Shown in pieces: positions 3,421 through 32,000 of a stretch of 32,000 bases of DNA (its first letter is position 1; each line of letters starts with the position of its first letter). Position numbers and translations under genes: made by a program. The stretch lies in contig NC_007517.1 of assembly GCF_000012925.1 (NCBI RefSeq), positions 810,001 to 842,000 of the forward strand. Direction: 5' to 3'. This DNA comes from Geobacter metallireducens GS-15. Its GTDB lineage: Bacteria; Desulfobacterota; Desulfuromonadia; Geobacterales; Geobacteraceae. The notes under the pieces were generated by a model that saw only the letters and a list, made by a program, of their open reading frames with translations, was not told the DNA's origin and made no database searches.

Positions 3421-3438
3421 GCAGATCCTCGCGCGGGA

Positions 3439-3467
3439 TAAAAAAGGGGAAAGCAACGCTTTCCCCT
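3439..3467 (-). terminator. Intrinsic terminator downstream of the actP-like gene
   Basis: On the minus strand: AGGGGAAAGC-GUU-GCUUUCCCCU (perfect 10-bp stem, 3445..3454 / 3458..3467) followed by UUUUUUA (3444..3439). It lies 38 nt after the actP stop. Confidence 0.8.
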
Positions 3468-3504
3468 AATCCTAGCACAAATTATACCGAATTAAAAAGC
3501 CGTT

Positions 3505-5487
3505 CTAGTGGTCGATGGCCTTGGCCATGCCGATGCCGGTGTTCTGGCGGACGTAGATCTCGTCGAACATCTCCTCGGAGCGGCGGCTCGGGAAGGCGAG
3601 GCAGCCGATGATGGCGGCGATGAAGCCGAGCGGGATAGAGATGATGCCTGGGTTCTTCAGGTCGATGAGGGGCTTGTCGAGGCCGATGAAGGACTTGCCG
3701 TCCTTGTTGGTTTCGTAATCCTTCTTGGCCTTGTCGAGATCCTTCATTTCCTTATCGGAGAGGAGCGCGCCGGTGGCTTGCTTCTCTTCAAGCTTCACGA
3801 CCACCTTCTTGGCGTCGGCGGCAACCTTCTTCGGATAGGTCATGTTGGGGGAGACCATCACCAGGGCGATTGAGGCGATGGTGCCGACCACGAGGCCCGA
3901 CACGACGCCGGCGGTGTTGAACTTGCGCCAGAAGAGGGACATGACGACGACCGGCAGGTTGCCCGAGGAGGCAACGGCAAAGGCCAGGGCCACCAGGTGG
4001 GCGACGTTCTGCTTCTCGGCGGCGATGCCGATCAGGATGCCGGCGGCGCCGACGCAGAGGGAGGTGATCCGGGCGGCCATGACCTGCTCATGCTGGTCGG
4101 CGTGGCCGTCCTTGATAACGTTCACGTAGATGTCGTGGGCGATGGCGGCGGAGGCAGCCAGAACGAGGCCCGACACGACGGCGAGGATGGTGGCGAAGGC
4201 AACGGCGCAGAGGAAGGCCAGGAGCAGGTCGCCCAGGAACGGGGAGATGTCGCCGCCCAGCTTCTGGGCAAGCATCATGGCGGCCATGTTTCCGCCTTTA
4301 TCCACGGCGGAGATCCCTTGCGGGGTCACGTGGATGGCGGCGCCGAAGCCGAGGAGCGTCGTCAGGATGTAGAAGAAGCCGATGATGAACATGGCAACGA
4401 TAACGGACTTGCGGGCTGCCTGGGCGGTCGGCACGGTGAAGAAGCGCATCAGGATGTGGGGCATGCCAGCAGTGCCGAGCACGAGGGCCATGCCGAGGGA
4501 TATCTGGTCAAGAGGATTCTTCATGAAGAGACCCGGTTCAAGGAACCGCTGCCCGTAGTCGAAGCCGGCCACGGCCACGGGATCCTTCAGGACCACCTTC
4601 TGCACGTGCTCGATGATGTTGGGGCTGGTGGCGATGTCGTTGAAGAACTGGAACGGGTTCATGCCCGACTTGATGCCCACGAGGATGGAGAGAACGAATG
4701 CACCGGTCATGAGGAGGCCGGCCTTGATGATCTGGACCCAGGTGGTGGCGGTCATGCCACCGAAGACGACGTAGCCGACCATGAGGATGCCGACGCCGAT
4801 GATGGCGAACTTGTAGGGGATGCCGATCAGCAGCTGCATGAGTTTCCCGGCGCCGACCATCTGGGCGGTGAGATAGAAGGTGGAGACGGCCACGACGGAG
4901 AGGGCGCAGACGGCCCGGACCACTTTCGGCTCGGTACGGAAGGAGAGGATGTCCCCCAGGGTGTACTTGCCGGCGTTGCGGCACGGCTCGGCCACGATGA
5001 GGAGCACCGTGATGTAGGCCACGAGCCATCCCACCGAGTACATGAAGCCGTCATAGCCGTAGAGGGAGATCATGCCGGAAATCCCCAGGAAGGAGGCGGC
5101 CGACATGTAGTCGCCGGCGATGGCCCAGCCGTTCTGGGTGCCGGTGATGCCGCCGCCCGCGGTGTAGAAGTCGGCAGCCGACTTGGTCCGCTTGGCCGAC
5201 CAGACGACGACGGCCATGGTCACGGCGATGATGATCAAAAAGATCGGGATGGTGACCATCGGGTTGGCCTTGATGGTCTTCTTCTCGGGAGTTGCGGCCG
5301 GCGTTGCCACCTTGGCTGCGGTGGCTGCTGCGGGCGCCGTGGCTGCCGGGGCAGGGGTTGTGGCTGCCGGTGCGGTTACGGCGGTCGGAGCGCCGGGGGA
5401 CGCGGGGGCCTTGGCAGGCTCCTCGGCAAAGGCGGCGAACGAGCCCAGGGAGAGGGCCAGAGTTATACCAGCAAGCAGTTTTTTCAT
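3505..5487 (-). CDS. actP: Cation/acetate symporter, ActP-like (sodium:solute symporter family)
   Basis: 660-aa multi-TM ORF with a GGAGGA SD 5 nt before ATG 5487. ActP-type motif FYTAGGGITGTQNGWAIAGDYMSAASFLGISG. Directly preceded by a DUF485 gene, as in yjcH-actP. N-terminal signal peptide followed by a Pro/Ala/Thr-rich linker. Confidence 0.85.
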   Translation of the reverse strand: MKKLLAGITLALSLGSFAAFAEEPAKAPASPGAPTAVTAPAATTPAPAATAPAAATAAKVATPAATPEKKTIKANPMVTIPIFLIIIAVTMAVVVWSAKRTKSAADFYTAGGGITGTQNGWAIAGDYMSAASFLGISGMISLYGYDGFMYSVGWLVAYITVLLIVAEPCRNAGKYTLGDILSFRTEPKVVRAVCALSVVAVSTFYLTAQMVGAGKLMQLLIGIPYKFAIIGVGILMVGYVVFGGMTATTWVQIIKAGLLMTGAFVLSILVGIKSGMNPFQFFNDIATSPNIIEHVQKVVLKDPVAVAGFDYGQRFLEPGLFMKNPLDQISLGMALVLGTAGMPHILMRFFTVPTAQAARKSVIVAMFIIGFFYILTTLLGFGAAIHVTPQGISAVDKGGNMAAMMLAQKLGGDISPFLGDLLLAFLCAVAFATILAVVSGLVLAASAAIAHDIYVNVIKDGHADQHEQVMAARITSLCVGAAGILIGIAAEKQNVAHLVALAFAVASSGNLPVVVMSLFWRKFNTAGVVSGLVVGTIASIALVMVSPNMTYPKKVAADAKKVVVKLEEKQATGALLSDKEMKDLDKAKKDYETNKDGKSFIGLDKPLIDLKNPGIISIPLGFIAAIIGCLAFPSRRSEEMFDEIYVRQNTGIGMAKAIDH

Positions 5488-9633: not shown

Positions 9634-10650
9634 ATGACCCGACTCGTTACCCCCGACATAACCGAAGACGACCTGATCGAATCGTCCCTGCGCCCCCGGG
9701 CACTGGACGACTACATCGGCCAGGAGAAGGCCAAGGGAAACCTGCGGGTCTTCATCGATGCGGCGCGGAAGCGGGGCGAGGCCCTGGACCACGTCCTCCT
9801 CTATGGCCCGCCGGGGCTGGGAAAGACGACGCTGGCCAACATCATCGCCTGCGAAATGGGAGTGAACATCAAGTCCACCTCCGGCCCGGTCATTGAGCGC
9901 CCCGGCGACCTGGCGGCGATCCTCACCAACCTGGAGCCCCACGACGTCCTTTTCATCGATGAGATTCACCGTCTCTCCCATGTGGTGGAGGAGATCCTCT
10001 ATCCGGCCATGGAGGACTACCAGCTCGACATCATTATCGGCCAGGGACCCAGCGCCCGGACCATCAAGCTGGACCTTCCGAAGTTCACCCTCGTGGGGGC
10101 CACCACGAGGGCCGGCCTCCTCTCCTCGCCGCTTCGGGATCGGTTCGGGGTCATCTCCCGGCTGGAGTTCTACACCGATGATGAGCTTACCACCATCGTC
10201 ACCCGTTCCGCCCGTATCCTGAACATCGGCATCGAACCGGAGGGTGGCCGGGAACTGGCCCGCCGAAGCCGCGGTACCCCCCGCATCGCCAACCGTCTCC
10301 TGCGCCGGGTGCGGGACTTCGCCCAGGTCCGGGCCGATGGTGTCATCACCGCACCGGTGGTGGACGAATCCCTGAAACTGCTGGAGATCGACGAGAAGGG
10401 GTTCGACCATATGGACCGGACCATTATGCTCACCATCATCGACAAGTTCGGCGGCGGTCCCGTGGGGCTCGACACCATCGCTGCCGCCATCGGCGAGGAG
10501 CGGGACACCATCGAGGACGTCTACGAACCGTTCCTCATCCAGCACGGCTTCATCAACCGCACCCCCCGCGGACGGGTGGCGACCAGGGCGGCCTACGAGC
10601 ACTTCGGCCGCATCGCTCCGCCGTCATCGTCCCAGGGGAATCTTTTCTAA
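9634..10650 (+). CDS. ruvB: Holliday junction branch-migration ATPase RuvB
   Basis: 338 aa. [16 protein letters not shown], Walker [12 protein letters not shown], Walker [26 protein letters not shown]. Confidence 0.95.
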
Positions 10651-11578: not shown

Positions 11579-11594
11579 TGGCATACTCTGTGCT
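11579..11594 (+). promoter_or_regulatory. Candidate sigma-54 (-24/-12) promoter of the PEP-CTERM gene
   Basis: TGGCAT-ACTCT-GTGCT: GG at 11580-81 and GC at 11592-93, giving the exact 12-nt GG-to-GC register of TGGCAC-N5-TTGC. About 75 nt upstream of ATG 11669. Confidence 0.6.
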
Positions 11595-11668: not shown

Positions 11669-12376
11669 ATGAAAAGGATACTATTTGCGCTTGCGCTGGT
11701 TGCATCAGTGGCAACATCTGGCTGGGCTATTACGTATACTGGTTCACTAGCCAGCAGTCCTGGTGGTGGATTGCTTGCAACTCTGGACTGGGCAGGGATA
11801 ACCACTGCCGGTGCTCCTAATTCTTCCCTGAGTTGGACTGTTGACGATACGACCAATACCGGTCTCTGGACCTACAACTACATCTGGACCGGAACGCGTA
11901 AGGGATTGAGCCACATCGTCATTGAAGTGTCGGATACTTTTACTAAAGACAACATTATGCAAATTTCCAGCGGGTATGATGGGGATGCCCCTAAAACCTA
12001 TTCTCCTTCTGATGCATCCAATGATGGCCTTCCCGCTGACATTTGGGGCATAAAGTGGAATGCTGAGGGAACTGTCTTCAATTTCAGTATCGTTACCGAT
12101 CGTGAGCCCATGTGGGGCGATGTATATGCCCGTGATGGAAAGACTGGCGGATCAGATGTCTATGCGTACAATACCGGCTTCGGCTTCGATACTGCTGCTG
12201 TCATTGCCGATGGCAACGCGTTCGATCAAGCGACCGGTCGCGCATGGGCACTGGTTCCCGATACGGAGAATGGCGGCGGCGGGCAGCAGGAGGTCGTTCC
12301 CGAACCGGGCACGATTATGCTCCTCGGCACCGGTCTGATCGGCCTTGCGCTTTATGGCAGGAGACGGATGAAGTAA
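11669..12376 (+). CDS. PEP-CTERM sorting-domain protein (predicted exosortase substrate)
   Basis: 235 aa. Signal peptide MKRILFALALVASVATSGWA. C-terminus VPEPGTIMLLGTGLIGLALYGRRRMK (PEP motif + TM helix + Arg cluster). GGAGG SD 5 nt upstream. GC is visibly lower than in the flanks. Confidence 0.9.
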   Translation: MKRILFALALVASVATSGWAITYTGSLASSPGGGLLATLDWAGITTAGAPNSSLSWTVDDTTNTGLWTYNYIWTGTRKGLSHIVIEVSDTFTKDNIMQISSGYDGDAPKTYSPSDASNDGLPADIWGIKWNAEGTVFNFSIVTDREPMWGDVYARDGKTGGSDVYAYNTGFGFDTAAVIADGNAFDQATGRAWALVPDTENGGGGQQEVVPEPGTIMLLGTGLIGLALYGRRRMK

Positions 12377-12513: not shown

Positions 12514-14277
12514 TTACTTGTAAACCGTTATGGAAGTGGTTGTGGTGTTGCCGGCGGCATCGAAGGCTTTGGACAGTATGGTGTGGGCACCGGTAGCGAT
12601 TTTTCGCGTATTCCAGCTGTAAGACAGGCTGGTGACGCCTGTTTTGCTGGTTGCCAGCTTGCCGTCAATGTAGAGCTCGATGCGGCTTACCCCCACATTG
12701 TCGCCGGCGGTGATGGTGATCGTTGCACTGGTCCCGACCTTTGCGCCGTTGGCCGGGGAGGTGATGGCGACGGTCGGGGCGATGGTGTCGGGAGTGTTTG
12801 AAACCTTGACCGAAACAGCGCTTGATTGCCCCATGTTTCCCGCGCCGTCGAAGGCCACGGCCTCCAGGGTGTAGGAGCCGTCCGCCGTGGTGGTGGTGTC
12901 CCACGAGAAGGCGTAGGGCGCGGTGGTTGCCGTGGCGAAGGGGGCGCCGTTGATGCGGAGCTCCACCTTGGCCACGCCGACGTTGTCAGAAGCCGCCACC
13001 GCCACCGACGCGTTTCCTTTCACGATACTGGAACTCGCGGGGGAGGTGATCGATGCGGTCGGGGCAGTTGTGTCGCCGACCGGCACTGCATTCTGGGCAG
13101 CCGTGAGGCTCTTGAGGACGTTGATCCGGCCGTAGCCGAAGTACTGATCGAAGCCGGGGGTGCCGATGTCGTCGGCATTTTTGGTGATGATGTCCACCAC
13201 CTGGGCATTGGTCAGGGTCGGGTTAACGGAGAGGATCAGCGCGCCGAGCCCCGCCGCGATGGGAGAGGAGAAGGAGGTGCCGCTCACGCTCGCATAGCCG
13301 CCGCCGTTGGCGGTGGTGAGGATGGAGACGCCGGGGGCCGCGATATCGATGGTGGAGCCGTAGTTGGAAAAGCTCGCCTTGGCGTCGTTGGCGTCGGTGG
13401 CCGCCACCGACACGGCGTTGGTGCAGGCGGCCGGATAGTAGGGGGTGCTCGTGTTGTAGTTGGCTGCCGAGGCAAAGACAATGGCTCCTTTGTTCCAGGC
13501 GTAGTTCACGGCATTCTGGAGAGTCGAGGAACTGGTGGAGCCGCCGTAGCTGAGATTGATGATGCGGACCCCATGATCGGCGGCGTAGGTGATGGCACTG
13601 GCCATGCGCGAGTAGGTAGCGTAGCCGGTGGAATCCGCGATCACCAGGGGCATGATCTGGTTCTGCCACGCCACGCCGGCAACCCCGGCGCCGTTATTAC
13701 CCATGGCCCCGGCCGAGCCTGCGACCTTTGTCCCGTGCCCGGTCACATCGTGGGTATCGGTGTTGTTGAAGACAAAGTTGAAACCGGGGAGAAGCTTGCC
13801 GGCCAGGTCCGGGTGAGATGGATCGACGCCCGAGTCCAGGATGGCGATGTCAACGGAACTGGAGCCGGTGGAGATGTCCCATCCCGCCGGAGCGGCAATC
13901 TTGGGGAGATGCCACTGGGAGGCGTAGGAGGGATCGTTGGGAACCATTGTCTGCTCAGCCAGGTAATTCTCTTCGACGAACGTTACGTGGGGATTCTTGG
14001 CCAGAGCAGCCTTGACCTTTGCCCGGGCAGCAGCAGGGACCTTGATCCTCTTTACCCGGATCGGAGCGATTTCCTCGGCTTCCCGGGCGCCGGCTCCCTT
14101 GAGGACGGTGTCGGCATTGGCCTTGTGGACGCCAGCCTTGAACTGGACAAGGAGCTCATCGGTTACGAACTTCTGGGGAGGGGGTGCGGCACCGGCCATT
14201 CCCGCTGCCAGGCAGAGGATGCCGAGGGTGCCAAGGTGAAGGGTGATCTTTCCACAAACTCGTTTCGTGCAGCGCAT
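12514..14277 (-). CDS. Secreted subtilisin-like serine peptidase (S8 family) with I9-like propeptide and two C-terminal Ig-like domains, paralog A
   Basis: 587 aa. Signal peptide ...LCLAAGMAGA/APPPQ. Catalytic triad contexts AILDSGVD, HDVTGHGTKVAG, SGTSFSSPIAAG. The C-terminus has 2 x (D-T-APT-x-I-T-SP...DNVGV..VE..I.G....WNT/WDT...G.H/Y.L...A.D.AGN). GGAGGTG SD upstream. Confidence 0.9.
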   Translation of the reverse strand: MRCTKRVCGKITLHLGTLGILCLAAGMAGAAPPPQKFVTDELLVQFKAGVHKANADTVLKGAGAREAEEIAPIRVKRIKVPAAARAKVKAALAKNPHVTFVEENYLAEQTMVPNDPSYASQWHLPKIAAPAGWDISTGSSSVDIAILDSGVDPSHPDLAGKLLPGFNFVFNNTDTHDVTGHGTKVAGSAGAMGNNGAGVAGVAWQNQIMPLVIADSTGYATYSRMASAITYAADHGVRIINLSYGGSTSSSTLQNAVNYAWNKGAIVFASAANYNTSTPYYPAACTNAVSVAATDANDAKASFSNYGSTIDIAAPGVSILTTANGGGYASVSGTSFSSPIAAGLGALILSVNPTLTNAQVVDIITKNADDIGTPGFDQYFGYGRINVLKSLTAAQNAVPVGDTTAPTASITSPASSSIVKGNASVAVAASDNVGVAKVELRINGAPFATATTAPYAFSWDTTTTADGSYTLEAVAFDGAGNMGQSSAVSVKVSNTPDTIAPTVAITSPANGAKVGTSATITITAGDNVGVSRIELYIDGKLATSKTGVTSLSYSWNTRKIATGAHTILSKAFDAAGNTTTTSITVYK

Positions 14278-14438
14278 GCGCCACCTCCATGGGTTGAGTT
14301 TGCTTCCTACCTCAGAAACAGACCCCCGTACCTATGGAAGGCGGGCGTTGCTCTTCGACAACCCGGCTATCCTGACCATGGAGTCAGGACCCGTGGCTTT
14401 GCGTCCCCCGGTTACCCGAAGTTTGCCCTTTCGGAAAC
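13057..14438. repeat. Direct repeat copy 1 (about 1.38 kb, near-identical to 15912..17293)
   Basis: By-eye alignment at a constant offset of 2855 nt. Identity begins at the codons for ...VPVGDTTAPT and runs through the catalytic domain, the start codon and 161 nt of leader. It ends abruptly at 14438/17293. Confidence 0.9.
14353..14438 (-). promoter_or_regulatory. GEMM-I (c-di-GMP / 3'3'-cGAMP class) riboswitch aptamer, copy 1, in the leader of S8 peptidase A
   Basis: Minus-strand RNA: GUUUCCGAAAGGGCAAAC-UUCGG-GUAA-CCGGG-GGACGCAAAGCC-ACGGGU-CCUGAC-UCCAUG-GUCAGG-AUAGCCGGGUUGUCGAAG. It contains the conserved GGCAAAC and GACGCAAAGCC blocks, a GNRA-capped P2, a P3 hairpin and the AGCCGGGUU block in canonical order. 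Confidence 0.75.
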
Positions 14439-14497: not shown

Positions 14498-14513
14498 TGT
14501 GACTTGAATCACA
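14498..14513. promoter_or_regulatory. CRP/FNR-superfamily-type palindrome TGTGA-N6-TCACA upstream of S8 peptidase A leader
   Basis: TGTGACTTGAATCACA is a perfect match to the CRP core half-sites. It lies about 67 nt upstream of the aptamer 5' end and overlaps the stop codon of the Crp/Fnr-family gene. Confidence 0.5.
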
Positions 14514-15225
14514 AAAACGGGGGATTGAGAAAGAGGGTAGGTTTGAGGAGCATTCTTCTGCTGGCGAGGAGTTCGATCTCTCCAGCACGGGAGAAGCGGC
14601 CCAAAATGCGGCTTGCCGTCTCCCGGGATACCGATGCGTAACCGGCGACGGTGCGGTGGGTTAGCTTGATGCTGAGAATTTTGCCACGAGAATCGTCCAC
14701 GCCATACTGGGTTCCGAGATATTTGAGGACTCCCCTGACCTTCTGCTCGGCGGAGGAAAAGCGTGACAGCTTCATGAGGAACCATGATTCGCGCAGCCGC
14801 GAACAAAGCACGCTGATGATCTGCCGCAGCATCCGGTCGTTGGTGAGAATCTGGTTTTCAAAGGCTGTCCGGGCAATGAGGCCGACGGTGGCGTCTTCGT
14901 GGGCGATGAGCGTTGCCGGAGACGTGCGGCCGTCAAGGAGGGCCATTTCGCCGAAAAACGCCCCCTTGCGATGAATGGCAAGGACCTGTTCCGTGCCGTC
15001 GTTGCTGTGCTGGACTACCCGCACTTTTCCCGCAAGGACGAGGTACATGTAGTTGGCTGTATCGGCTTCATGAAGGATGGTGCGATTTTTCGGAAAGACC
15101 TGGATCTCAATGAGCTTGCTTAACGTATTGATGTCATCGGGTGGGAGGGGGGCAAAGAGCGGAATGGCGCTCAGAATCGATTGGAGAGGGGCCGGTATGG
15201 TTGTACGTGGATTCTTGGAGTTCAT
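14509..15225 (-). CDS. Crp/Fnr-family transcriptional regulator (cNMP-binding domain + C-terminal HTH)
   Basis: cNMP-binding signature GAFFGEMALLDGRTSPATLIAHEDATV. HTH: THRTVAGYASVSRETASRILGRFSRAGEI. Start placed at ATG 15225 because a strong sigma-70-type promoter lies inside the longer GTG-initiated ORF (15288). Confidence 0.85.
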   Translation of the reverse strand: MNSKNPRTTIPAPLQSILSAIPLFAPLPPDDINTLSKLIEIQVFPKNRTILHEADTANYMYLVLAGKVRVVQHSNDGTEQVLAIHRKGAFFGEMALLDGRTSPATLIAHEDATVGLIARTAFENQILTNDRMLRQIISVLCSRLRESWFLMKLSRFSSAEQKVRGVLKYLGTQYGVDDSRGKILSIKLTHRTVAGYASVSRETASRILGRFSRAGEIELLASRRMLLKPTLFLNPPFL

Positions 15226-15249
15226 GGTGAGATACCTGTCGGTTGCCGG

Positions 15250-15277
15250 ATTATAATGCAAGTATAGCAGCCTTGAA
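15250..15277 (-). promoter_or_regulatory. Sigma-70-type promoter of the Crp/Fnr-family gene
   Basis: On the minus strand: TTCAAG (15277..15272), 16-nt spacer, TATAAT (15255..15250). About 25 nt upstream of ATG 15225. Confidence 0.55.
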
Positions 15278-15304
15278 GATGAATACACGTAACAGGGTAA
15301 CAGA

Positions 15305-15368: not shown

Positions 15369-17132
15369 TTACTTGTAGACGGTAATGGTGGTCGTACCGA
15401 CGTTTCCGAACCAGTCGAAGGCCTTGGCGAGAATTGTGTGAGTGCCCGTGGCTACCTTGCGGGTGTTCCATGCATAGGTGAGGGTGTTGGTGCCGCTTGC
15501 CGTGGTGAGGAGGAGTCCGTCAAAGTAAAGTTCAATCTTTCTGACCGCCAGATTGTCTTTTGCTGAAATGCTGACCGTCGTTTTTGTGCCGAGCGTGATG
15601 CCCGTTGCCGGCGCTGTGATGGAGACCGTGGGCGCAATGGTGTCCAGTGAGTTGTACACGACGATTCCCGCTAGGCTCAATTCTCCCACGTTCCCGGCGG
15701 CGTCATAGGCTTTGACCGCGATAGTGTAGATGCTGTCGGGCAGGGTGGTTGTGTCCCATGAGAAGCTGAAGGGGGATGTGTTACTGGAGGCGTACAGTGC
15801 GCCGTTTATGTAAAGCTCTATCCGGGTGACACCGATGTTGTCGGCTGCCGCAACGTTGACTGTTACCGTTCCCTTGACCGTCGAGCCGGCGTTGAGCGAT
15901 GGGATTGAGACTGTCGGGGCAGTTGTGTCGCCGACCGGCACCGCATTCTGGGCAGCCGTGAGGCTCTTGAGGACGTTGATCCGGCCGTAGCCGAAGTACT
16001 GATCGAAGCCGGGGGTGCCGATGTCGTCGGCATTTTTGGTGATGATGTCCACCACCTGGGCATTGGTCAGGGTCGGGTTAACGGAGAGGATCAGCGCGCC
16101 GAGCCCCGCTGCGATGGGAGAGGAGAAGGAGGTGCCGCTCACGCTCGCATAGCCGCCGCCGTTGGCGGTGGTGAGGATGGAGACGCCAGGGGCGGTGATA
16201 TCGATGGTGGAACCGTAGTTGGAGAAGCTCGCCTTGGCGTCGTTGGCGTCGGTGGCCGCCACCGACACGGCGTTGGTGCAGGCGGCCGGATAGTAGGGGG
16301 TGCTCGTGTTGTAGTTGGCTGCCGAGGCAAAGACAATGGCCCCTTTGTTCCAGGCGTAGTTCACGGCATTCTGGAGAGTCGAGGAACTGGTGGAGCCGCC
16401 GTAGCTGAGATTGATGATGCGGACCCCATGATCGGCGGCGTAGGTGATGGCACTGGCCATGCGCGAGTAGGTAGCGTAGCCGGTGGAATCCGCGATCACC
16501 AGGGGCATGATCTGGTTCTGCCACGCCACGCCGGCAACCCCGGCGCCGTTATTACCCATGGCCCCGGCCGAGCCTGCGACCTTTGTCCCGTGCCCGGTCA
16601 CATCGTGGGTATCGGTGTTGTTGAAGACAAAGTTGAAACCGGGGAGAAGCTTGCCGGCCAGGTCCGGGTGAGATGGATCGACGCCCGAGTCCAGGATGGC
16701 GATGTCAACGGAACTGGAGCCGGTGGAGATGTCCCATCCCGCCGGAGCGGCAATCTTGGGGAGATGCCACTGGGAGGCGTAGGAGGGATCGTTGGGAACC
16801 ATTGTCTGCTCAGCCAGGTAATTCTCTTCGACGAACGTTACGTGGGGATTCTTGGCCAGAGCAGCCTTGACCTTTGCCCGGGCAGCAGCAGGGACCTTGA
16901 TCCTCTTTACCCGGATCGGAGCGATTTCCTCGGCTTCCTGGGCGCCGGCTCCCTTGAGGACGGTGTCTGAATTGTCCTTGTGGACGCCAGCCTTGAACTG
17001 GACGAGGAGCTCATCGGTTACGAACTTCTGGGGAGGGGGGGCGGCACCGGCCATTCCCGCTGCCAGGCAGAGGATACCGAGGGTGCCAAGGTGAAGGGTG
17101 ATCTTCCCACAAACTCGTTTCGTGCAGCGCAT
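15369..17132 (-). CDS. Secreted subtilisin-like serine peptidase (S8 family) with two C-terminal Ig-like domains, paralog B
   Basis: 587 aa, the same length as paralog A. Only 4 aa differences over the first ~405 residues (signal, propeptide, catalytic domain), but roughly half identity over the last ~180 residues (Ig-like domains). Confidence 0.9.
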   Translation of the reverse strand: MRCTKRVCGKITLHLGTLGILCLAAGMAGAAPPPQKFVTDELLVQFKAGVHKDNSDTVLKGAGAQEAEEIAPIRVKRIKVPAAARAKVKAALAKNPHVTFVEENYLAEQTMVPNDPSYASQWHLPKIAAPAGWDISTGSSSVDIAILDSGVDPSHPDLAGKLLPGFNFVFNNTDTHDVTGHGTKVAGSAGAMGNNGAGVAGVAWQNQIMPLVIADSTGYATYSRMASAITYAADHGVRIINLSYGGSTSSSTLQNAVNYAWNKGAIVFASAANYNTSTPYYPAACTNAVSVAATDANDAKASFSNYGSTIDITAPGVSILTTANGGGYASVSGTSFSSPIAAGLGALILSVNPTLTNAQVVDIITKNADDIGTPGFDQYFGYGRINVLKSLTAAQNAVPVGDTTAPTVSIPSLNAGSTVKGTVTVNVAAADNIGVTRIELYINGALYASSNTSPFSFSWDTTTLPDSIYTIAVKAYDAAGNVGELSLAGIVVYNSLDTIAPTVSITAPATGITLGTKTTVSISAKDNLAVRKIELYFDGLLLTTASGTNTLTYAWNTRKVATGTHTILAKAFDWFGNVGTTTITVYK

Positions 17133-17293
17133 GCGCCACCTCCATGGGTTGAGTTTGCTTCCTACCTCAGAAACAGACCCCCGTACCTATGGAAGGCGGG
17201 CGTTGCTCTTCGACAACCCGGCTATCCTGACCATGGAGTCAGGACCCGTGGCTTTGCGTCCTCCGGTTACCCGAAGTTTGCCCTCTCGGAAAC
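15912..17293. repeat. Direct repeat copy 2 (near-identical to 13057..14438)
   Basis: See copy 1. I counted about 8 mismatches in the ~300 nt next to the 3' junction and very few elsewhere. Confidence 0.9.
17208..17293 (-). promoter_or_regulatory. GEMM-I riboswitch aptamer, copy 2, in the leader of S8 peptidase B
   Basis: Same sequence as copy 1 (offset +2855) except for 2 substitutions (17262, 17285). One converts a predicted U.G pair of P2 into U-A, which is consistent with the proposed helix. Confidence 0.75.
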
Positions 17294-25270: not shown

Positions 25271-26008
25271 ATGAGTGATACGCAACGGCAGCCCGAAATC
25301 TGGCTGATGGGGTTGGGATGTGATGAGGAGCGTTCGGCGAAGGTGCGCGATTATCTGACCTATGCAGGATACCGGGTGACCTGCCACGGGATGGATGATT
25401 TTGCCGACGGCAGGCCCCTCGGGGTGGTTCTCGACCTCTCGCCCTTTTCCAGGGACGGGTGGGGGATTCTGCTCGACATCAAGAATAACGCGGCCACCCG
25501 TGACGTGCCGATACTGCCGGTCTATCTCAGCCAGGAGGGGAAGGTGGGAGGGATTTTCCCCGCTGTCGGATTTTTCACCCTTCCTGTCGATCCCGACTAC
25601 CTCTTGACGAAATTGGCGGTGTTGGGGCTCACGGAGGATGCCGAGACCTGGGACCTGCAGGTGATGGTGGTGTCGAAGCGGGGTGAGGAGCATCTGGCCA
25701 AGGCGCTAACGTCCCTCGGCTTCGATGTGGTTAACGCATACACCGGCAAAGAGGCGGTTGCCCTTGCCACCATCGGCCGCCCCTTCATGGTCTTCTGCTG
25801 CGTAATGCTTCCCGACATGTCGGCGTTCGAGCTCATGGAGCGTTTCCGCCTCTTTCCCCAGGTGCGCAACGTTCCCTTCTTCGTGCTGGTCAAGGATGCC
25901 ATGAAGGAGGGGGAGAGGGCGGCGCTGAGCCGTCAGGTCGAGCATCTGGTAAGGAAGAAAGAGCTGACGCGGGAGGAGTTTGCGACCCACCTTCGGCGCC
26001 GGCGCTGA
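25271..26008 (+). CDS. Double receiver-like (REC/pseudo-REC) protein without output domain
   Basis: 245 aa from ATG 25271. Two CheY-like repeats; the first keeps an Asp (VVLDLSPFSRDGW). The second has VMVVSK in place of the DD pair and FCCVMLPDMSAFE in place of the phospho-acceptor Asp context. Confidence 0.55.
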   Translation: MSDTQRQPEIWLMGLGCDEERSAKVRDYLTYAGYRVTCHGMDDFADGRPLGVVLDLSPFSRDGWGILLDIKNNAATRDVPILPVYLSQEGKVGGIFPAVGFFTLPVDPDYLLTKLAVLGLTEDAETWDLQVMVVSKRGEEHLAKALTSLGFDVVNAYTGKEAVALATIGRPFMVFCCVMLPDMSAFELMERFRLFPQVRNVPFFVLVKDAMKEGERAALSRQVEHLVRKKELTREEFATHLRRRR

Positions 26009-26232: not shown

Positions 26233-29043
26233 CTACAGCTTCACGGTCTTGTATAAAAAGTTCTTGAATTTAAAGAATTTTTTCCGCTCATCGTCGTTTT
26301 CCTCGTCGTCGCCGTTCACCGCTTTCAGATAACGGGCCACCTGGGGCATGGCCTTGCCCGCCGCATCCTTTGCCCGCTCGATAACGAGCCGCACCACATC
26401 CCGGGAGATGGCGTTGGCGGAGTAGGGCTCGTAGACCGCTTCCCAGAAGGTCGCGCCGTTGGCGATCTGCTGCATGATGTCAACTGACAGCCGTTCGTTG
26501 AGCTCCTGGGCGGCGTTGGCAGGGGGGAGTTCCCGCATGCCGGCGGCTAGGGCACGGCGGATGTCGTCGGCGGTAAGGACTTTCCCTTTCCGGAAGAAGA
26601 GCGCCCGCAGCAGGATGCTCCGTAGCTCCCGGATGTTGCCGTGGTAGTGGTGGTTCATCAGGAGCTGCTTGGCGTCGCGGGTGAGGGTGGGGGTGTCCTC
26701 CTTGGGCTCGTCGCCGCGATAGGTGCGGTAGAGCTTGCCGAGGAAGTGGGTGGCCAGGTCGGGGATATCCTCACGCCGGTCATTCAGGGACGGCACCCGC
26801 ATCGACAGCTCCGAGAGGCGGTGGTAGAGGTCTTCCCGGAAGTTTCCCCGCCGGATCTCCTCGGTCAGGTCCTTGTTGGTGGCGGCCACCAGCAGCACCC
26901 GGCTGAACCGGTCCTGGTTGTCCCCCAGGCGCACGAAGCCGCCGTTGTCGAGAAAGCGCAGGAGCTGCACCTGGGTCTTGGGGTCGGCGTCGCCGATCTC
27001 ATCCAGGAAGACGATTCCCCCCGCCGCTTCTTCCAGAATCCCCTTCCGGTCGCTGTAGGCGCCGGTGAAGGCCCCCTTCTTGTGGCCGAAGAGCTCCGAG
27101 TAGGTGAGGTCCCCGCTGTAGGCGGCGATGTTGGTCTTTTTCACCGGGAGCTGGCCGCTGGGGTTCAGTTTCTCCCGGTACATCTCGTTCAGCTTGTTGT
27201 AGAGGTTGTTGAAAAAGAATTCCTTGCCGGCGCCGGTCTGCCCCAGGACCAGGATGGAGGGGAGGCCGATGGTGGCTTCCTGGAGCACGTTCTTGGACCA
27301 GAGGGTGATCCGGTTGAAGAGGGGAACCGACACGGTCTCGATGAAGTCGACGATCTCCTGGGCCTTGCGGCTGTTGCCGATGATGTTGCCGAGGCGGTAG
27401 GAGGAGATCTGGGGGTCTTTGTAGGCCACGTCGCTTTTAAGTCGCGTCACCTCGTTCTGGAGCCGCTCGATCCGCGTCAGGTCCGAGATGTGCCGGGCCG
27501 TGAGCCGGTCGATGATCTGGAGGATCCGCTTGTGCTCCTCGGTGAACCAGGCCGGCTTCAGGGAGTTGAGGCAGACCACGGCGATCACCTCGTCGTCGCA
27601 GACGATGGGGACGGCGATCTCGCTCTGGATCTGCTCGTGCATGGAGCGGTGGAACCCCTCGCCCTGCTGTTCGTCGGCCACGTGGGCGATGATCCTGGGC
27701 TGCTTCGACCAGGCCACGTACCCCGTGAGGCTCCGTTCCTCCGGGGGGAGCTCCCCCCCGCCGATCCGGAAGGGGGGGATGTGCTTCTTCATCCACGCCT
27801 TGTTCTTGGCGCCGACGATGGTCCCTTCCTCGTCCTCCACCAGGAGCCACTTACCCCCTTCCCGCTCCTCCACGATGGCGATGCTCCCGGTGTCGGCGCC
27901 GATGAGCTCTGTCGCCTTGGAGAGGACCTTGGTGAGGAAGGGCTGCAGCTCTTCGGTCCGTTCCTGGAGGAGTTCGGTGATTTCGGCCAGGACCCGGATC
28001 TCCAGGTGCTCGCCGCCGATCTCGTTCACGGCCCGCTCGGCCATCTCGGCGTGGGTTTGGAGAAGCCCCATCTCGAAGTCGGAGAAACGGTAGAGCTCAA
28101 CGGTGAAGTAGTTCACGAGGCAGATGACCTTGCGGCTGGACGGCTCGTAGCGGGGGACCACGTAGAGGGAACGGAGCGCCATCTCTTCGGTGAGGGCCTT
28201 CTTCTGGAGGGAGTGCTGGGTGAGGTCGGGGATGAAGAGGGGGCGCAGGAGCCGTTCGTCAGTAATGACGGCGTTGTCGTCGATGAAGCGGGAGATGAGG
28301 GAGGTGCCCCGCTGCAGCGCGATCTCTCCCTGTTCGTCGTAACGGGACTTGAACCGGGGGTCTTCCGAATGGCTGGCAAGGATGGCGAGTCGCGCCGTGC
28401 CGTCGTCGCCCATGACCGGCACGAGCACCGAGGCGAGCACCAGCTTGTCGATGAGGCGCACCGCCGACTGGACCATGAAGGAGGCGGCCTCCCGTTTTTT
28501 GTACTCGTCAACCCGCCGGGCCAGCAGGAGCTGCTGGTGGTAGATGCGGGCGGAGTCGATCCGGTCGGCCACGGAGGTGATGAACTCGCCCAGGAGGGCC
28601 TTATCCTTCCCCCTGAGGAGATCCGCCGGCTGGAAGCGGTCGATGCAGGCCACGCCGATGGACTTCCCCTGGCTCACCACCGGCAGGAGCGAGGAGATGC
28701 CGACGGCGAACCGCTCGGCAAAGCCGTTGTCGAAGGTGCTCGGGCCGGCCGGGTCATGCCGGAACTCAGCCGGGTACTGGCTGACGAACACGCTGGAGAC
28801 CGTGGCCTCCCGGGAAATGATGGGGAAGCTTACCGCACGGATCTCGTCTGCCAGAGGGCCCGAGGCGTAGACGCAGGAGAGGACTCCGCGGGTCAGGTCC
28901 TCCAGGTAGATGCGGATACGGTCCTGGCCCGAGACGAGGCGGATTCCCTCGGCAACGGCATGGAGCATCTCCTCCAGGTTTTCCTTGCCATAGTCGGCGA
29001 TGCGGTCGCGGAGTGCATTGAGCTGGGTGCTGAGATTGGTCAT
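26233..29043 (-). CDS. Sigma-54-dependent transcriptional activator (bEBP) with three N-terminal GAF-like domains
   Basis: 936 aa. Walker A LGQTGAGKEFF, the sigma-54 contact loop GAFTGA (GHKKGAFTGAYSDRKG), Walker B GGIVFLDEIGD, ELFGH. A long N-terminal region with repeated GAF-like units. The C-terminal ~100 aa is not a textbook Fis-type HTH by eye. Confidence 0.85.
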   Translation of the reverse strand: MTNLSTQLNALRDRIADYGKENLEEMLHAVAEGIRLVSGQDRIRIYLEDLTRGVLSCVYASGPLADEIRAVSFPIISREATVSSVFVSQYPAEFRHDPAGPSTFDNGFAERFAVGISSLLPVVSQGKSIGVACIDRFQPADLLRGKDKALLGEFITSVADRIDSARIYHQQLLLARRVDEYKKREAASFMVQSAVRLIDKLVLASVLVPVMGDDGTARLAILASHSEDPRFKSRYDEQGEIALQRGTSLISRFIDDNAVITDERLLRPLFIPDLTQHSLQKKALTEEMALRSLYVVPRYEPSSRKVICLVNYFTVELYRFSDFEMGLLQTHAEMAERAVNEIGGEHLEIRVLAEITELLQERTEELQPFLTKVLSKATELIGADTGSIAIVEEREGGKWLLVEDEEGTIVGAKNKAWMKKHIPPFRIGGGELPPEERSLTGYVAWSKQPRIIAHVADEQQGEGFHRSMHEQIQSEIAVPIVCDDEVIAVVCLNSLKPAWFTEEHKRILQIIDRLTARHISDLTRIERLQNEVTRLKSDVAYKDPQISSYRLGNIIGNSRKAQEIVDFIETVSVPLFNRITLWSKNVLQEATIGLPSILVLGQTGAGKEFFFNNLYNKLNEMYREKLNPSGQLPVKKTNIAAYSGDLTYSELFGHKKGAFTGAYSDRKGILEEAAGGIVFLDEIGDADPKTQVQLLRFLDNGGFVRLGDNQDRFSRVLLVAATNKDLTEEIRRGNFREDLYHRLSELSMRVPSLNDRREDIPDLATHFLGKLYRTYRGDEPKEDTPTLTRDAKQLLMNHHYHGNIRELRSILLRALFFRKGKVLTADDIRRALAAGMRELPPANAAQELNERLSVDIMQQIANGATFWEAVYEPYSANAISRDVVRLVIERAKDAAGKAMPQVARYLKAVNGDDEENDDERKKFFKFKNFLYKTVKL

Positions 29044-29241
29044 GGATGCCTCTGAGTGTAGGAAATGTACTCAGAAGCAGTGTAGGAGAAGGGGGGGAGG
29101 GAAGTCAAGGAAATCGGGGACCGGTGATCTGGGACCGGGGACCGGGAAGCGCATGTTCACATGGGTGCGGCTGGTGTGGCAGCATGGCTAACGCGGCTTT
29201 GGGAAGTGGGTTTTACTGGTCCCCGGTCCTTGGTCCCGGCC

Positions 29242-31086
29242 TTAACTGAGCCCTTTGCGTATCTGGTAGAGTTGTTCGAGGTCGAGCCGGTTCAGCTCGA
29301 AGTATTCCCGCTCCAGTTCCTCCACGTAGAAGCGGTCCAGGCCCGAGTTCTCCAGGAAATCCTCCCGCAGGGCGCTGTCCTTCTCGCCGATGATCTGGGG
29401 GAGGAGGTTATGGAGGTAGACCGCCTCCTTCTTGATGGTAACGATGGTCTCGTCAAAAAGCCGTGAGGGGATGGAGCCGGTTATGATTTTCCGTTTCCGC
29501 AGATCCTCGGTCACCTCGCGTTTCATGGTCGCCTGGTCGTCCCGGGTGGCGTAGTTGGAGTAGAAGTTCCTGATCCGGTCCCGCACATGGTTCAGGAGGG
29601 CGATGGCGAGCCGCTCCTCGCGGTCGATGGCCAGCAATTCGTCCAGCAGCGTCGCCACGGTGAGTCGGTTCTCCTCGATAAGCCGCAGCCCCGCCACGAG
29701 CGCCGTAACCTTCCTCCGTCCGTAGCGGCCCAGATACTTGTTCTCCAGGATCCCGTCAATGAAGATCTCGGTGAAGAGCCCCGGCCGCAACTCCTCGAAG
29801 GCGCTCCGGTTTCCCAGGAGGCTCCGGATCATCTCCTCGGAGATGCGCACGGTTTCCATGAACGCGAGTTGGTTCACCGCCTGGGACGTGGCGTCGAACC
29901 GGTCGAAATAGGTGATGATGTGGGAGAATCCCTCCAGGAGCGCCATGTCCGCCCCGTCGCGGATCCTCTCGTCGCACCCCTTGCTGGCGTCCAGAAGAAT
30001 CTCCTCGAAGGTGTGGTCCCTGACCTCGGAGGCGCGCTTTTTGGCGAAAAGAAGCCTCACCATGTCCTCCCGGTCGATGGCGCTCTCGATCTCCCGTTCC
30101 CGCAGGAAGAGCCCTTCGAGGATCTGGCGGGTCTCGGCGATGGATTCGTGCTCCTCGGTCCCCCCGATCTTCTTGTCTTTTTTCAGCATGTCGTCGAGGG
30201 CGTAGAAGAGGGCACCAGGAATCTTGTTTCGCACCGACAGGGTCTTAAGGCGGGTGAGCCGGGCGTTTTCCAGGGCGCTGATCTCCCCCTTGAGGTGGCA
30301 GCCAATGAGGATGTTCTTGTATTCGTCAACGATCCGCCGATTGGCCGGATGTTTGTACATGACATCGATCCGGATCCGCTCCTGCTGGTAGCGGTCGATG
30401 TTGTGACGCTCGGCAATGTCCGAAAGCCCGGCGAAATCCTCGTCGGAGATTTTCTTGCTGGCAAAGTAGAGGCTGCGGAAGGTGTCGTAATATTCCCGGT
30501 GATGGATGTTCACCAGCTTGAAGAGAAAGAAGAGGGCGCCGGGGTCGTTCAGGAGCCCGAGCACCTCGTCGATGAGGGTGTTCTCGTCATGGGCGCCCAC
30601 GGTCGGAGAGCGCTTGAGGGCCTTGCCGACGGCGCGGACGATGGCTGTCTGCTGTTGGCGGAGGCTCGCGCCGAGGCGTTCCGAGGCGAGGAAAAAGAAG
30701 TAGTTCGCCACCGCGTTGCCGTCGAAGAAAATTTTGTCGAAGCCCAACTCCCCACTGGTCTGTTCGCTGAAGTGGAGCGTCCCTCCCTCGTCGCCGGAGC
30801 GGGCGCCGTAGACCACGAGCCGGTTGATGACATCCCCCTTGGCCAGGTCAGCCATGGGCTGGTCCACGCCGAACATGTACTCGCAGAATGAGCCGCCATT
30901 GCCTGCGTGTCGTATGCCGCCGCGGCCGATGACGAACTCGTTGCCGGGGGAGAAGAAGCGAAGCTGCGCCCCGTTGCTCTCGGCGGCGTTGAAGAAGTAG
31001 CGCCGGTGGGCATCCTCGCCAGCCACGATGGCGTAATACTCGATTCGATCGTCGATATGTCCGTGGAGGCGGATGTCTTTGTTCAT
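29242..31086 (-). CDS. Conserved hypothetical protein, 614 aa, no recognisable catalytic motif (possibly the family NCBI labels TIGR04442; from memory, unverified)
   Basis: A long, clean ORF with coding-like composition and no TM helices. N-terminal ~150 aa is beta-rich (GNEFVIGRGGIRHAGNGGSF...); the remainder is helical. Only 34 nt downstream of the MBL-fold gene. Confidence 0.6.
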   Translation of the reverse strand: MNKDIRLHGHIDDRIEYYAIVAGEDAHRRYFFNAAESNGAQLRFFSPGNEFVIGRGGIRHAGNGGSFCEYMFGVDQPMADLAKGDVINRLVVYGARSGDEGGTLHFSEQTSGELGFDKIFFDGNAVANYFFFLASERLGASLRQQQTAIVRAVGKALKRSPTVGAHDENTLIDEVLGLLNDPGALFFLFKLVNIHHREYYDTFRSLYFASKKISDEDFAGLSDIAERHNIDRYQQERIRIDVMYKHPANRRIVDEYKNILIGCHLKGEISALENARLTRLKTLSVRNKIPGALFYALDDMLKKDKKIGGTEEHESIAETRQILEGLFLREREIESAIDREDMVRLLFAKKRASEVRDHTFEEILLDASKGCDERIRDGADMALLEGFSHIITYFDRFDATSQAVNQLAFMETVRISEEMIRSLLGNRSAFEELRPGLFTEIFIDGILENKYLGRYGRRKVTALVAGLRLIEENRLTVATLLDELLAIDREERLAIALLNHVRDRIRNFYSNYATRDDQATMKREVTEDLRKRKIITGSIPSRLFDETIVTIKKEAVYLHNLLPQIIGEKDSALREDFLENSGLDRFYVEELEREYFELNRLDLEQLYQIRKGLS

Positions 31087-31120
31087 GGGAACCTTATGCC
31101 GCTTGTTTGGTCAGCTCCGT

Positions 31121-31876
31121 CTACAAAGCAATCTCCATGCCGTCGTATGCAAACTCAACACCTTCGGGGAGCCGCGACTCATCCCCATGGGCCACCTCGT
31201 GGGTCAGGTGGGTAAGGATGGCCCGCTTTGGCTTCAGTTGCTCCACGATCCTGAGCGCCCCCTCGATGTTGAAGTGGTTCTCGTGGGGAGTGTAGCGGAG
31301 GGCGTCCATGATGAGGATGTCCAGGCCGGTCAGGAGCGATAGCGACGAGTCGGGGATGCGGCTGCAGTCGGTGAGGTAGGCGGCGCCGTCGATCCGGTAG
31401 CCGGTGGCGGGCATGGCGCCGTGGTAGAGATGGATCGGGACGATGCTCTGCCCGAAAAGGGCGAACGGTTCGTTCACAATGTGGGCTTCCATGAGGGGAG
31501 AGTAGCCGACCACCTCCAGCCCCCGGAAGATGTAGGAGAAGTTCCTTTGCACCGCCTCCATGGTTGTCCGGCTGCCGTGGCAGGGGATCACCCGGCGGTG
31601 GATGAAGTGAAAACCGCGCAGGTCGTCAATGCCGTTTATGTGGTCGGCGTGGGGATGGGTGAGGAGTACCGCGTCGATGTAGGGAATCCGCTGACGCAGG
31701 GCCTGGCGCCGGAGGTCCGGCGAGGTGTCCACGAGGATGTACTTCCCCGCCGTCTCGATCATGATAGAGGACCGGGTTCGCTTGTCCTTCGGGTCGCTTG
31801 ACGAGCAGACGGGACAGTGGCAGCCGACCATGGGGACGCCGGTTGAGGTGCCGCTGCCGAGAATGGTTATTTTCAT
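31121..31876 (-). CDS. MBL-fold metallo-hydrolase, PhnP-like (cyclic phosphodiesterase-type)
   Basis: Start at ATG 31876 (MKITILGSGTSTGVP). Cys cluster GCHCPVCSS, metal motif THPHADH, later His/Asp ligands. 251 aa. The layout is typical of the PhnP/GPMC-type MBL subfamily. Confidence 0.8.
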   Translation of the reverse strand: MKITILGSGTSTGVPMVGCHCPVCSSSDPKDKRTRSSIMIETAGKYILVDTSPDLRRQALRQRIPYIDAVLLTHPHADHINGIDDLRGFHFIHRRVIPCHGSRTTMEAVQRNFSYIFRGLEVVGYSPLMEAHIVNEPFALFGQSIVPIHLYHGAMPATGYRIDGAAYLTDCSRIPDSSLSLLTGLDILIMDALRYTPHENHFNIEGALRIVEQLKPKRAILTHLTHEVAHGDESRLPEGVEFAYDGMEIAL

Positions 31877-32000
31877 GTGGTGAATTCCCTGTAAAATATC
31901 TACGAAAAATACCATGAGCCGGAGCAGCCCTGCAAGGGCTTTGTCCTTGCATCGGAAGGCGCAGTCAGGCTACTATCCTCGCTCCGAGAGGAGCCTCCCG

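Follow-up and report, generated by a model that had tools for sequence, protein, structure and literature searches.

Within a stretch of 32,000 nucleotides (nt) of the Geobacter metallireducens GS-15 genome (contig NC_007517.1, positions 810,001 to 842,000; referred to below as the window, whose first letter is position 1), three adjacent genes encode a metallo-beta-lactamase (MBL)-fold hydrolase, a protein of the TIGR04442 family and a sigma-54-dependent transcriptional activator. From adjacency counts across 80 related loci, the MBL and TIGR04442 genes were recognised as a stable core, with the activator gene as a frequent but dispensable third member. We tentatively propose that a functional link among the three products, if any, is directed from the MBL-TIGR04442 pair towards the activator, at the ligand or protein level; a reading that gives the pair housekeeping roles and takes the activator as an unrelated neighbour is nearly as likely.

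Geobacter is a model for metal reduction and for electricity-producing biofilms, and it possesses many sigma-54 activators whose inputs have not been worked out. The trio is near-universal and strongly conserved in this group, and assigning it a function would cover a protein family present in at least 537 species genomes and might reveal what a GAF-type activator senses. We describe the predicted structure of TIGR04442 for a first time, delimit the phyletic range of the trio and define its putative promoter and operator elements. A candidate operator motif is thereby made available for regulon finding, the hydrolase is expected to be a diphosphatase, and the targets of the activator are predicted to lie elsewhere.

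Identity of the three genes

The three genes lie on the minus strand in the same direction, and the list of open reading frames (ORFs) of the window gave intergenic gaps of 34 nt and 198 nt, as stated in a preliminary description of this DNA. The first (31121..31876) encodes an MBL-fold metallohydrolase of the PhnP family (251 amino acids, aa), the second (29242..31086) the TIGR04442 protein (Pfam PF27907/CHP04442; 614 aa), and the third (26233..29043) the sigma-54-dependent activator (936 aa). The best named relatives, from Geobacter grbiciae and G. hydrogenophilus, were 97-98% identical.

All three proteins exceeded curated cut-offs in an NCBIfam profile search: the hydrolase scored 411 bits with NF038231, 'GPMC system MBL fold metallohydrolase' (cut-off 360), the 614-aa protein 1021 bits with the TIGR04442 model (cut-off 150), and the activator 1644 bits with NF038230, 'GPMC system transcriptional regulator' (cut-off 1200). 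Because these cut-offs were passed and the names match those used in public records, the trio is the NCBIfam GPMC system and is already catalogued; it does not differ from that system in gene order, orientation or Geobacter/Pelobacter-type range. The family names given in the preliminary description proved correct. The catalogue entry gives no function, and full-text literature searches (family names, accessions and Geobacter GAF-type enhancer-binding proteins) returned no paper dealing with the GPMC system, which agrees with the earlier statement that the association is catalogued and functionally uncharacterised.

A longer reading of the hydrolase ORF (31121..31915) would encode 264 aa. The 251-aa start was preferred because hydrolase residues 2-249 align with positions 1-249 of the NF038231 model, because public gene calls also give 251 aa, and because the conserved promoter described below falls inside the 264-aa ORF.

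Conservation of the gene arrangement

To describe the arrangement in other species, we used a species-level genome scan (one genome per species, with a profile built from 10 sequences), which found TIGR04442 relatives in 537 genomes. Locus counts refer to the best 80 loci from that scan, all belonging to Geobacterales or Desulfuromonadales; more distant contexts come from single look-ups. The MBL gene was found directly upstream of the TIGR04442 gene, on the same strand, in 76 of the 80 loci (median gap 54 nt); it was shifted by a 3.3-kb insertion in two others, and contig ends prevented any judgement in the last two. The activator gene lay downstream of TIGR04442, on the same strand, in 61 loci, either within 1 kb (53 loci) or beyond an insertion of 1.7-6.5 kb (8 loci), and its presence could not be judged in four. 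This synteny is far beyond chance, and the association proposed from a single stretch of DNA is conserved across the Geobacterales. The outer flanks vary by lineage, with a glycosyltransferase, an NRAMP transporter or MetX upstream, and a response-regulator-like protein, an integrase, a polysaccharide deacetylase or his genes downstream.

Other genes were sometimes observed beside or within the trio. One Pelobacter/Desulfuromonas-type clade has, inserted between the TIGR04442 and activator genes, an ORF of about 100 aa with a FlgM anti-sigma-28 domain (PF04316, E = 2e-11) (L056, positions 9913-10218, with equivalents in L059, L065, L066, L067, L068, L071 and L072). The gene convergent with the activator gene (window 25271-26008, plus strand; product of 245-275 aa) gave a sub-threshold receiver-domain match (24.5 versus 30.2 bits); together with a divergent gene for a DUF362 4Fe-4S protein, it accompanies the trio in about 10 loci of Geobacter proper.

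Promoters and candidate operator

Upstream of the MBL gene, a putative sigma-70-type promoter of the MBL-TIGR04442 pair (31906..31950, minus strand) comprises a -35 element TTGCA(G) (31935-31930), an 18-nt spacer and an extended -10 element, TGGTATTTT (31914-31906). Its form in the family, a -35 element TTGCC or TTGCA with an extended -10 element TGnTAttTT, corresponds to positions 31906-31936 of the window, and 62 of 75 related loci have the pattern TTG[CT][CA]-N14-19-TGnTA ahead of the MBL start. The -35 element is overlapped by an inverted repeat, GCAAGG...CCTTGC (31950-31932), and a CAAG...CTTG repeat occurs at this promoter in 29 of the 75 loci.

A consensus scan assigned the activator gene a putative sigma-70-type promoter of its own (29079..29108, minus strand), with TTGACT, an 18-nt spacer and TACACT; TTGAC-N17/18-TAnAnT was found upstream of the activator gene in all 59 of the loci listed. 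A candidate operator, the 17-bp palindrome GAGTA-N7-TACAC (29056..29072), is placed downstream of the -10 element of this gene and ahead of its Shine-Dalgarno sequence. Of 61 loci, 52 carry the family consensus, GWGTA-N7-TACWC, immediately before the activator gene. The window contains a single copy, versus a mean of 0.27 in shuffled sequences. The palindrome is absent from loci without the activator gene and travels with that gene when insertions part it from TIGR04442. We also considered an RNA hairpin, which was not favoured: the half-sites show no excess of complementary pairs and do not co-vary (about 13 perfect versus about 41 hybrid combinations), and the palindrome is for this reason more readily seen as a protein-binding DNA site than as an RNA stem. 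An Rfam scan found no RNA family in or near the trio. Judged from its conservation, the palindrome may plausibly serve as an operator for autoregulation.

A second match to the palindrome pattern, GTGTAYGARCCNTACWC, was observed inside the 3' part of the activator coding region in eight loci other than the window (L017, position 12781; L022, 17759; L025, 12586; L027, 12593; L031, 12644; L032, 9013; L042, 4764; L048, 12685). It seems to match the conserved peptide VYEPYS and is probably a coding by-product.

No conserved sigma-54 promoter (-24/-12, GG-N10-GC) was detected upstream of the MBL, TIGR04442 or activator gene, no strong sigma-54 site recurred in 1.2 Mb of related loci, and no copy of the palindrome was found beside a strong sigma-54 promoter in the window or in that 1.2 Mb. 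As no such promoter is conserved locally, the activator probably does not transcribe its neighbours, and its targets are probably located elsewhere in the genome. Two candidate sigma-54 sites were rejected. The first, CGGCATGGAGATTGCT (31127-31142), falls within the MBL gene at its 3' end, 40 nt ahead of where TIGR04442 starts; it is kept in close relatives only, where it encodes the same DGMEIA peptide, and vanishes in other genera. The second was TGGTAC/TGGTAT upstream of the MBL gene, which lacks the -12 GC in most loci and is too near the start codon; given its conserved -35 partner, it was read as an extended -10 element instead.

The 198-nt spacer between the TIGR04442 and activator genes contains GGGACC-rich inverted and direct repeats (29115..29237; inverted repeats I1-I3, I5 and I6, with arms of up to 20 nt), which might fold into a long hairpin or serve as an element of terminator-like or repeat type. 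Across loci, this spacer measures anywhere from 0 to 6458 nt (median 175 nt), and in other species it carries short simple repeats (runs of CTCTAGC, CAACCTT or CACTGGT). It looks like a hot spot for repeat expansion.

The MBL-fold hydrolase

The Cys cluster GCHCPVCSS and the metal motif THPHADH (HxHxDH) were both read in the translated hydrolase, as described previously, and align to PhnP-family structures; the Pfam family Lactamase_B_2 also matched. In a PDB search, the closest solved relative was 6B9V (E = 1e-69, about 50% identity, residues 3-249 versus 7-258), followed by the Brucella structures 3PY5/3MD7 (E = 1e-47) and, further away, PhnP itself (3G1P, E = 5e-18). The scores obtained with the equivalog models TIGR03307 for PhnP (106.9 bits, cut-off 272.25) and PRK02113 (250 bits, cut-off 386) were below their cut-offs.

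In PMC7599082, which cites Beaudoin et al. 2018, 6B9V is given as a Mn-dependent diphosphatase of photoproducts of flavin adenine dinucleotide ('FAD photoproduct diphosphatase', Fpd) belonging to the PhnP family. The Geobacter hydrolase shares with Fpd, and with the Brucella homologue BrabA.11339.a, the GCxCxVC cluster, the HxHxDH motif, the other metal ligands and similarity over the full length. The Koribacter Fpd enzyme reportedly cleaves FAD photoproducts, FAD and ADP-ribose, is said to have almost no activity on riboflavin cyclic phosphate, and reportedly owes its assignment to the clustering of its gene with genes for flavin (FAD) synthesis and transport. At its di-Mn site, the Brucella homologue binds AMP or GMP; from their structures, its authors infer cleavage of AMPPNP between the alpha and beta phosphates. 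Because Fpd is the closest relative and the Brucella homologue is nucleotide-binding, activity as a nucleotide-diphosphate (ADP-X) hydrolase, rather than as a cyclic phosphodiesterase, is the best-supported expectation for the Geobacter enzyme.

The gene neighbourhood differs from those of both relatives. The hydrolase has TIGR04442 as its partner, and neither its annotated neighbours in the window nor the gene clusters that recur in the flanks of the 80 loci include genes for flavin synthesis or transport. With PhnP it shares the MBL subfamily architecture, the Cys cluster and the metal motif, but its closer characterised relative has a different activity, and no phn (C-P lyase) genes were found among its scanned neighbours. 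Those scanned in the window encode a glycosyltransferase, a HerA-like ATPase, TIGR04442, the activator, the response-regulator-like protein, the DUF362 Fe-S protein and UbiB.

In 12 loci (cluster 5; for example L054, positions 2706-3962), an ORF judged by eye to resemble an NRAMP-type divalent-metal (Mn2+) transporter was observed directly upstream of the MBL gene. This neighbour is notable given the Mn-dependence of the closest characterised relatives of the enzyme, and could be a coincidence.

The TIGR04442 protein

TIGR04442 is a small family, with 215 matches among 1.84 billion representative proteins and about 30 full-length clusters at 50% identity, all of 600-633 residues and none with another architecture. 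The preliminary description had found no assignable motif in the 614-aa protein, and indeed no domain of a local copy of Pfam-A matched it. Scanning 31 family members up to E = 1 likewise gave no Pfam-A match, PP2C and SpoIIE included, and PDB searches with the single sequence and with the family profile returned no sequence relative and no PP2C. Neither the Pfam-A scans nor the PDB searches gave a match to a synthase, cyclase or nucleotidyltransferase family.

The AlphaFold2 model, built with a 31-sequence family alignment, was confident, with a predicted local distance difference test (pLDDT) score of 85.8 for the full-length protein and of 90.7 for the N-terminal domain modelled alone. It is characterised by an N-terminal beta-sandwich domain with three helices (aa 1-193; 30508-31086, minus strand), followed by an all-helical region of about 420 residues (aa 194-614; 29245-30507, minus strand). 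In a Foldseek search of the N-terminal domain against PDB, the top 15 matches were all phosphatases or pseudo-phosphatases of the PP2C family, among them SpoIIE, RsbX, PPM1K and plant PP2Cs. These matches were weak (E from 6.5e-3 to 0.2; template modelling (TM) score 0.21-0.37; root-mean-square deviation (rmsd) at least 10 Å). The full-length model gave the same weak trend, and a PP2C protein was the sole recognisable match in the viral structure library BFVD. No significant match was obtained with the helical part against PDB. The structure prediction foreseen in the preliminary description produced a confident model, and the structure search yielded only weak PP2C-family matches.

In the 31-sequence alignment, the N-terminal domain exhibits the conserved motif GNGG...YMFG...P..D, with D80 as its one invariant acidic residue. 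The residue preceding GNGG is variable, and nothing conserved stands in for the aspartate of the DGxGG motif of PP2C. The invariant residues of the protein are mostly Gly, Phe or other hydrophobics, with few polar ones.

Compared with PP2C/PPM proteins such as SpoIIE, RsbX and the C-terminal domain of RssB, the only family that repeatedly leads the results of structure searches with the N-terminal domain, TIGR04442 has GNGG without the DGxGG aspartate, low TM scores (0.31-0.37) and no match to a PP2C or SpoIIE profile, and its 420-residue helical extension has no counterpart there. A further likeness lies in the gene context: in four of four Acidobacteriota loci (L085, L089, L092 and L093), a Hanks-type Ser/Thr kinase gene adjoins the TIGR04442 gene on its downstream side. 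In three of these (L089, L092 and L093), a small HTH_17 gene directly precedes TIGR04442 (gaps of 2-20 nt) and the kinase carries an FGE-sulfatase domain. A PilZ protein is encoded two genes downstream of TIGR04442 in one metagenomic locus. Overall, none of the tests that we ran places TIGR04442 in the PPM family, and the description of its N-terminal domain as PP2C-like and probably non-catalytic is a lead from the model rather than a finding.

The sigma-54-dependent activator

The activator had been described as having about three GAF-like domains. This number is reasonable, with two of the domains established: GAF3 (aa 366-511; 27511-27948, minus strand) is a strong Pfam match, and GAF1 (aa 22-159; 28567-28980, minus strand) scored barely above its Pfam threshold (23.9 versus 22.4 bits). 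The middle stretch (GAF-like 2, about aa 190-340; 28024-28476, minus strand) is weak, with 16.6 bits and E = 0.011. These domains are followed by an AAA+ domain with its lid (aa 596-838; 26530-27258, minus strand; Sigma54_activat PF00158, E = 7.6e-45 over aa 596-747, and PF25601), and the translation contains GAFTGA as well as the Walker motifs GQTGAGKE and FLDEIGD. The C-terminal tail of about 60 aa has no detectable HTH_8, and the last 124 residues gave no HTH_8 or other Pfam match; public annotations nonetheless say 'Fis family'.

After NF038230, the best family was RtcR, with 229 bits (cut-off 650) over the AAA+ part only (aa 595-881). The activator differs from RtcR in that no CARF domain was found in Pfam scans, its N-terminus carrying GAF domains, and no rtcA or rtcB gene was found in the neighbour scans that would point to an rtcBA operon. 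An N-terminal GAF sensor is likewise found in NifA and NorR. In the NifL-NifA system, nifL sits upstream of nifA, and the gene of a possible modulator, TIGR04442, is likewise located directly upstream of the activator gene. TIGR04442 lacks the PAS and GHKL domains of NifL, and whereas NifL-NifA is one operon with a shared promoter, the promoters of the GPMC trio are separate and there is no sigma-54 target nearby.

The 590-residue sensor region of the activator has 813 database relatives, the named ones all from Geobacter, Geotalea or Desulfuromonadales. Among the 120 matches listed, it is 66-92% identical across genera; at the sequence level, such conservation is unusually strong for a sensory region.

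Possible functions of the trio

In the reading that we tentatively prefer, the MBL gene, which encodes an Fpd-like di-metal phosphoesterase of the PhnP family, and the TIGR04442 gene form a two-gene unit behind one conserved putative sigma-70-type promoter, and the activator gene has a putative promoter of its own. The activator would act on distant sigma-54 promoters without transcribing its neighbours, and the palindrome would probably mediate its autoregulation. Acting upstream of the activator, the hydrolase may control how much of a nucleotide-derived ligand (for instance, an ADP-linked or phosphodiester compound) is available for the GAF domains to sense, and TIGR04442 may be a non-catalytic signalling or adaptor partner, with a PP2C-like domain devoid of catalytic aspartates and a helical interaction domain, rather than a ligand synthase.

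This reading is supported by the persistence of the MBL and activator genes beside TIGR04442 while the outer flanks vary, by the placement of all three proteins in curated families, and by the separate conserved promoters, the recurring palindrome and the lack of a local sigma-54 promoter. It is also supported by the identity of the hydrolase to Fpd and the nucleotide binding of the Brucella homologue; by PP2C being the sole recurring fold match of the TIGR04442 N-terminal domain in two libraries, together with its one invariant acidic residue; and by the regulator genes that adjoin TIGR04442 in other lineages and the strongly conserved activator sensor. In a more far-reaching form, which we consider rather unlikely, TIGR04442 would found a new class of non-catalytic PP2C-like signalling proteins and, jointly with an Fpd-like hydrolase, would gate an RtcR-like, GAF-sensing activator when a molecule derived from nucleotides appears as a signal or through damage (for example, an ADP-linked sugar or a cyclic-phosphate species). 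If true, such PP2C-like gating would give sigma-54 transcription in Geobacter a new route of input.

Several observations weigh against a link between the pair and the activator. Among the 76 loci that could be judged, the activator was absent within 3-8 kb in 15 (at least 3 kb visible downstream), where unrelated genes were found. In Acidobacteriota, Nitrospirota and unassigned metagenomes, TIGR04442 proteins (27-44% identity) have no MBL or sigma-54 activator gene nearby, and outside the Geobacterales they often occur in housekeeping surroundings, next to ribosomal-protein, SSB, LptFG or CCA-enzyme genes. The four Acidobacteriota loci with a kinase gene share wider synteny and therefore count as one lineage-level observation. 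The likeness to PP2C is weak even for the best match of the N-terminal domain (E = 6.5e-3, probability 0.84, TM 0.36, rmsd about 10 Å). Moreover, we infer the promoter and operator functions from conservation alone, and any interaction or shared ligand among the three proteins is hypothetical.

The alternative that survives best, itself doubtful, explains the same arrangement by inheritance. The MBL enzyme would be the Geobacterales version of a widespread Fpd-type metabolite-damage or nucleotide diphosphatase, TIGR04442 would have a separate core role, and the activator would be an unrelated inherited neighbour with its own regulon. The separate conserved sigma-70-type promoters fit this well, as does the fact that neither a sigma-54 promoter nor the palindrome precedes the MBL-TIGR04442 pair. 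TIGR04442 standing alone in other phyla, the loss of the activator from some loci, the insertions tolerated in front of it in others and the close similarity of the hydrolase to an enzyme with an established, unrelated role all point in the same direction. It accounts less well for a trio that stays intact over several genera despite changing outer flanks, and for an activator that remains with TIGR04442 even across inserted genes. In addition, the named relatives of the activator all come from the clade in which the MBL-TIGR04442 pair occurs, and NCBI curators group all three as one system.

According to the preliminary description, the trio could form a make/break/sense module for small-molecule signalling. 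Spelled out for the three proteins, TIGR04442 would make a new small molecule, perhaps a cyclic phosphate or nucleotide, which the MBL enzyme would break down and the activator would detect through its GAF domains. The conserved gene linkage and the two established GAF domains are in keeping with such a module; GAF domains commonly bind cyclic nucleotides. The PhnP family includes cyclic phosphodiesterases, with PhnP a detectable relative of the hydrolase, and Geobacter is a heavy user of cyclic dinucleotide signalling, with two GEMM-I-type riboswitches in the same window. The expectation of a cyclic phosphodiesterase was not supported, since the nearest characterised relative, Fpd, is named a diphosphatase and the score with the PhnP model was far from its cut-off; this kinship therefore weakens the cyclic-phosphate premise of the proposal. 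The role of ligand maker fares no better. TIGR04442 matches no family of synthases, cyclases or nucleotidyltransferases, its invariant residues are mostly Gly, Phe and hydrophobic, and its sole fold likeness is to a phosphatase family whose catalytic residues, the metal-binding aspartates, are absent from it. In other phyla, moreover, it occurs with neither the degrading enzyme nor the sensor. We therefore regard this module as improbable.

Finally, an anti-phage defence or mobile-element module, with the MBL protein as an Apyc1-like or 6A-MBL-like nuclease and a RtcR/CARF-like regulator, would agree with a weak Apyc1 Pfam flag on the MBL protein in precomputed annotations, its weak match to a 6A-MBL model (E = 1.7e-5) and the resemblance of the activator AAA+ core to RtcR-type CARF_AAA_HTH models of PADLOC (RtcR_PspF2, 233 bits), but it is hardly credible, as the MBL protein gave only negligible PADLOC matches, TIGR04442 matched no PADLOC model and had no supporting match in the viral structure library, the activator carries GAF and no CARF domains, and the locus is vertically inherited, keeps its position and is 60-90% identical between genera.

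Other features of the window

A sigma-54-like promoter, TGGCATACTCTGTGCT (window 11579-11594, plus strand), was observed about 75 nt before an ORF (11669..12376) encoding a 235-aa protein with a PEP-CTERM sorting motif at its end (Pfam PF07589, E = 5e-7). No GWGTA-N7-TACWC lies nearby, and this promoter may belong to the exosortase/PEP-CTERM regulon and not to that of the GPMC activator.

The two GEMM-I-type riboswitch aptamers (window 14353-14436 and 17208-17291, both minus strand) matched the Rfam family c-di-GMP-I-UAU with 69.7 and 69.2 bits, respectively (gathering threshold 65.9). In Geobacter, many riboswitches of the GEMM-I class respond to cGAMP instead of c-di-GMP. Each aptamer is located upstream of one of two tandem paralogous genes for secreted subtilisin-like proteases (12514..14277 and 15369..17132; 86% identical), and a gene for a CRP/FNR-family regulator (14509..15288) lies between the two riboswitch-protease units.

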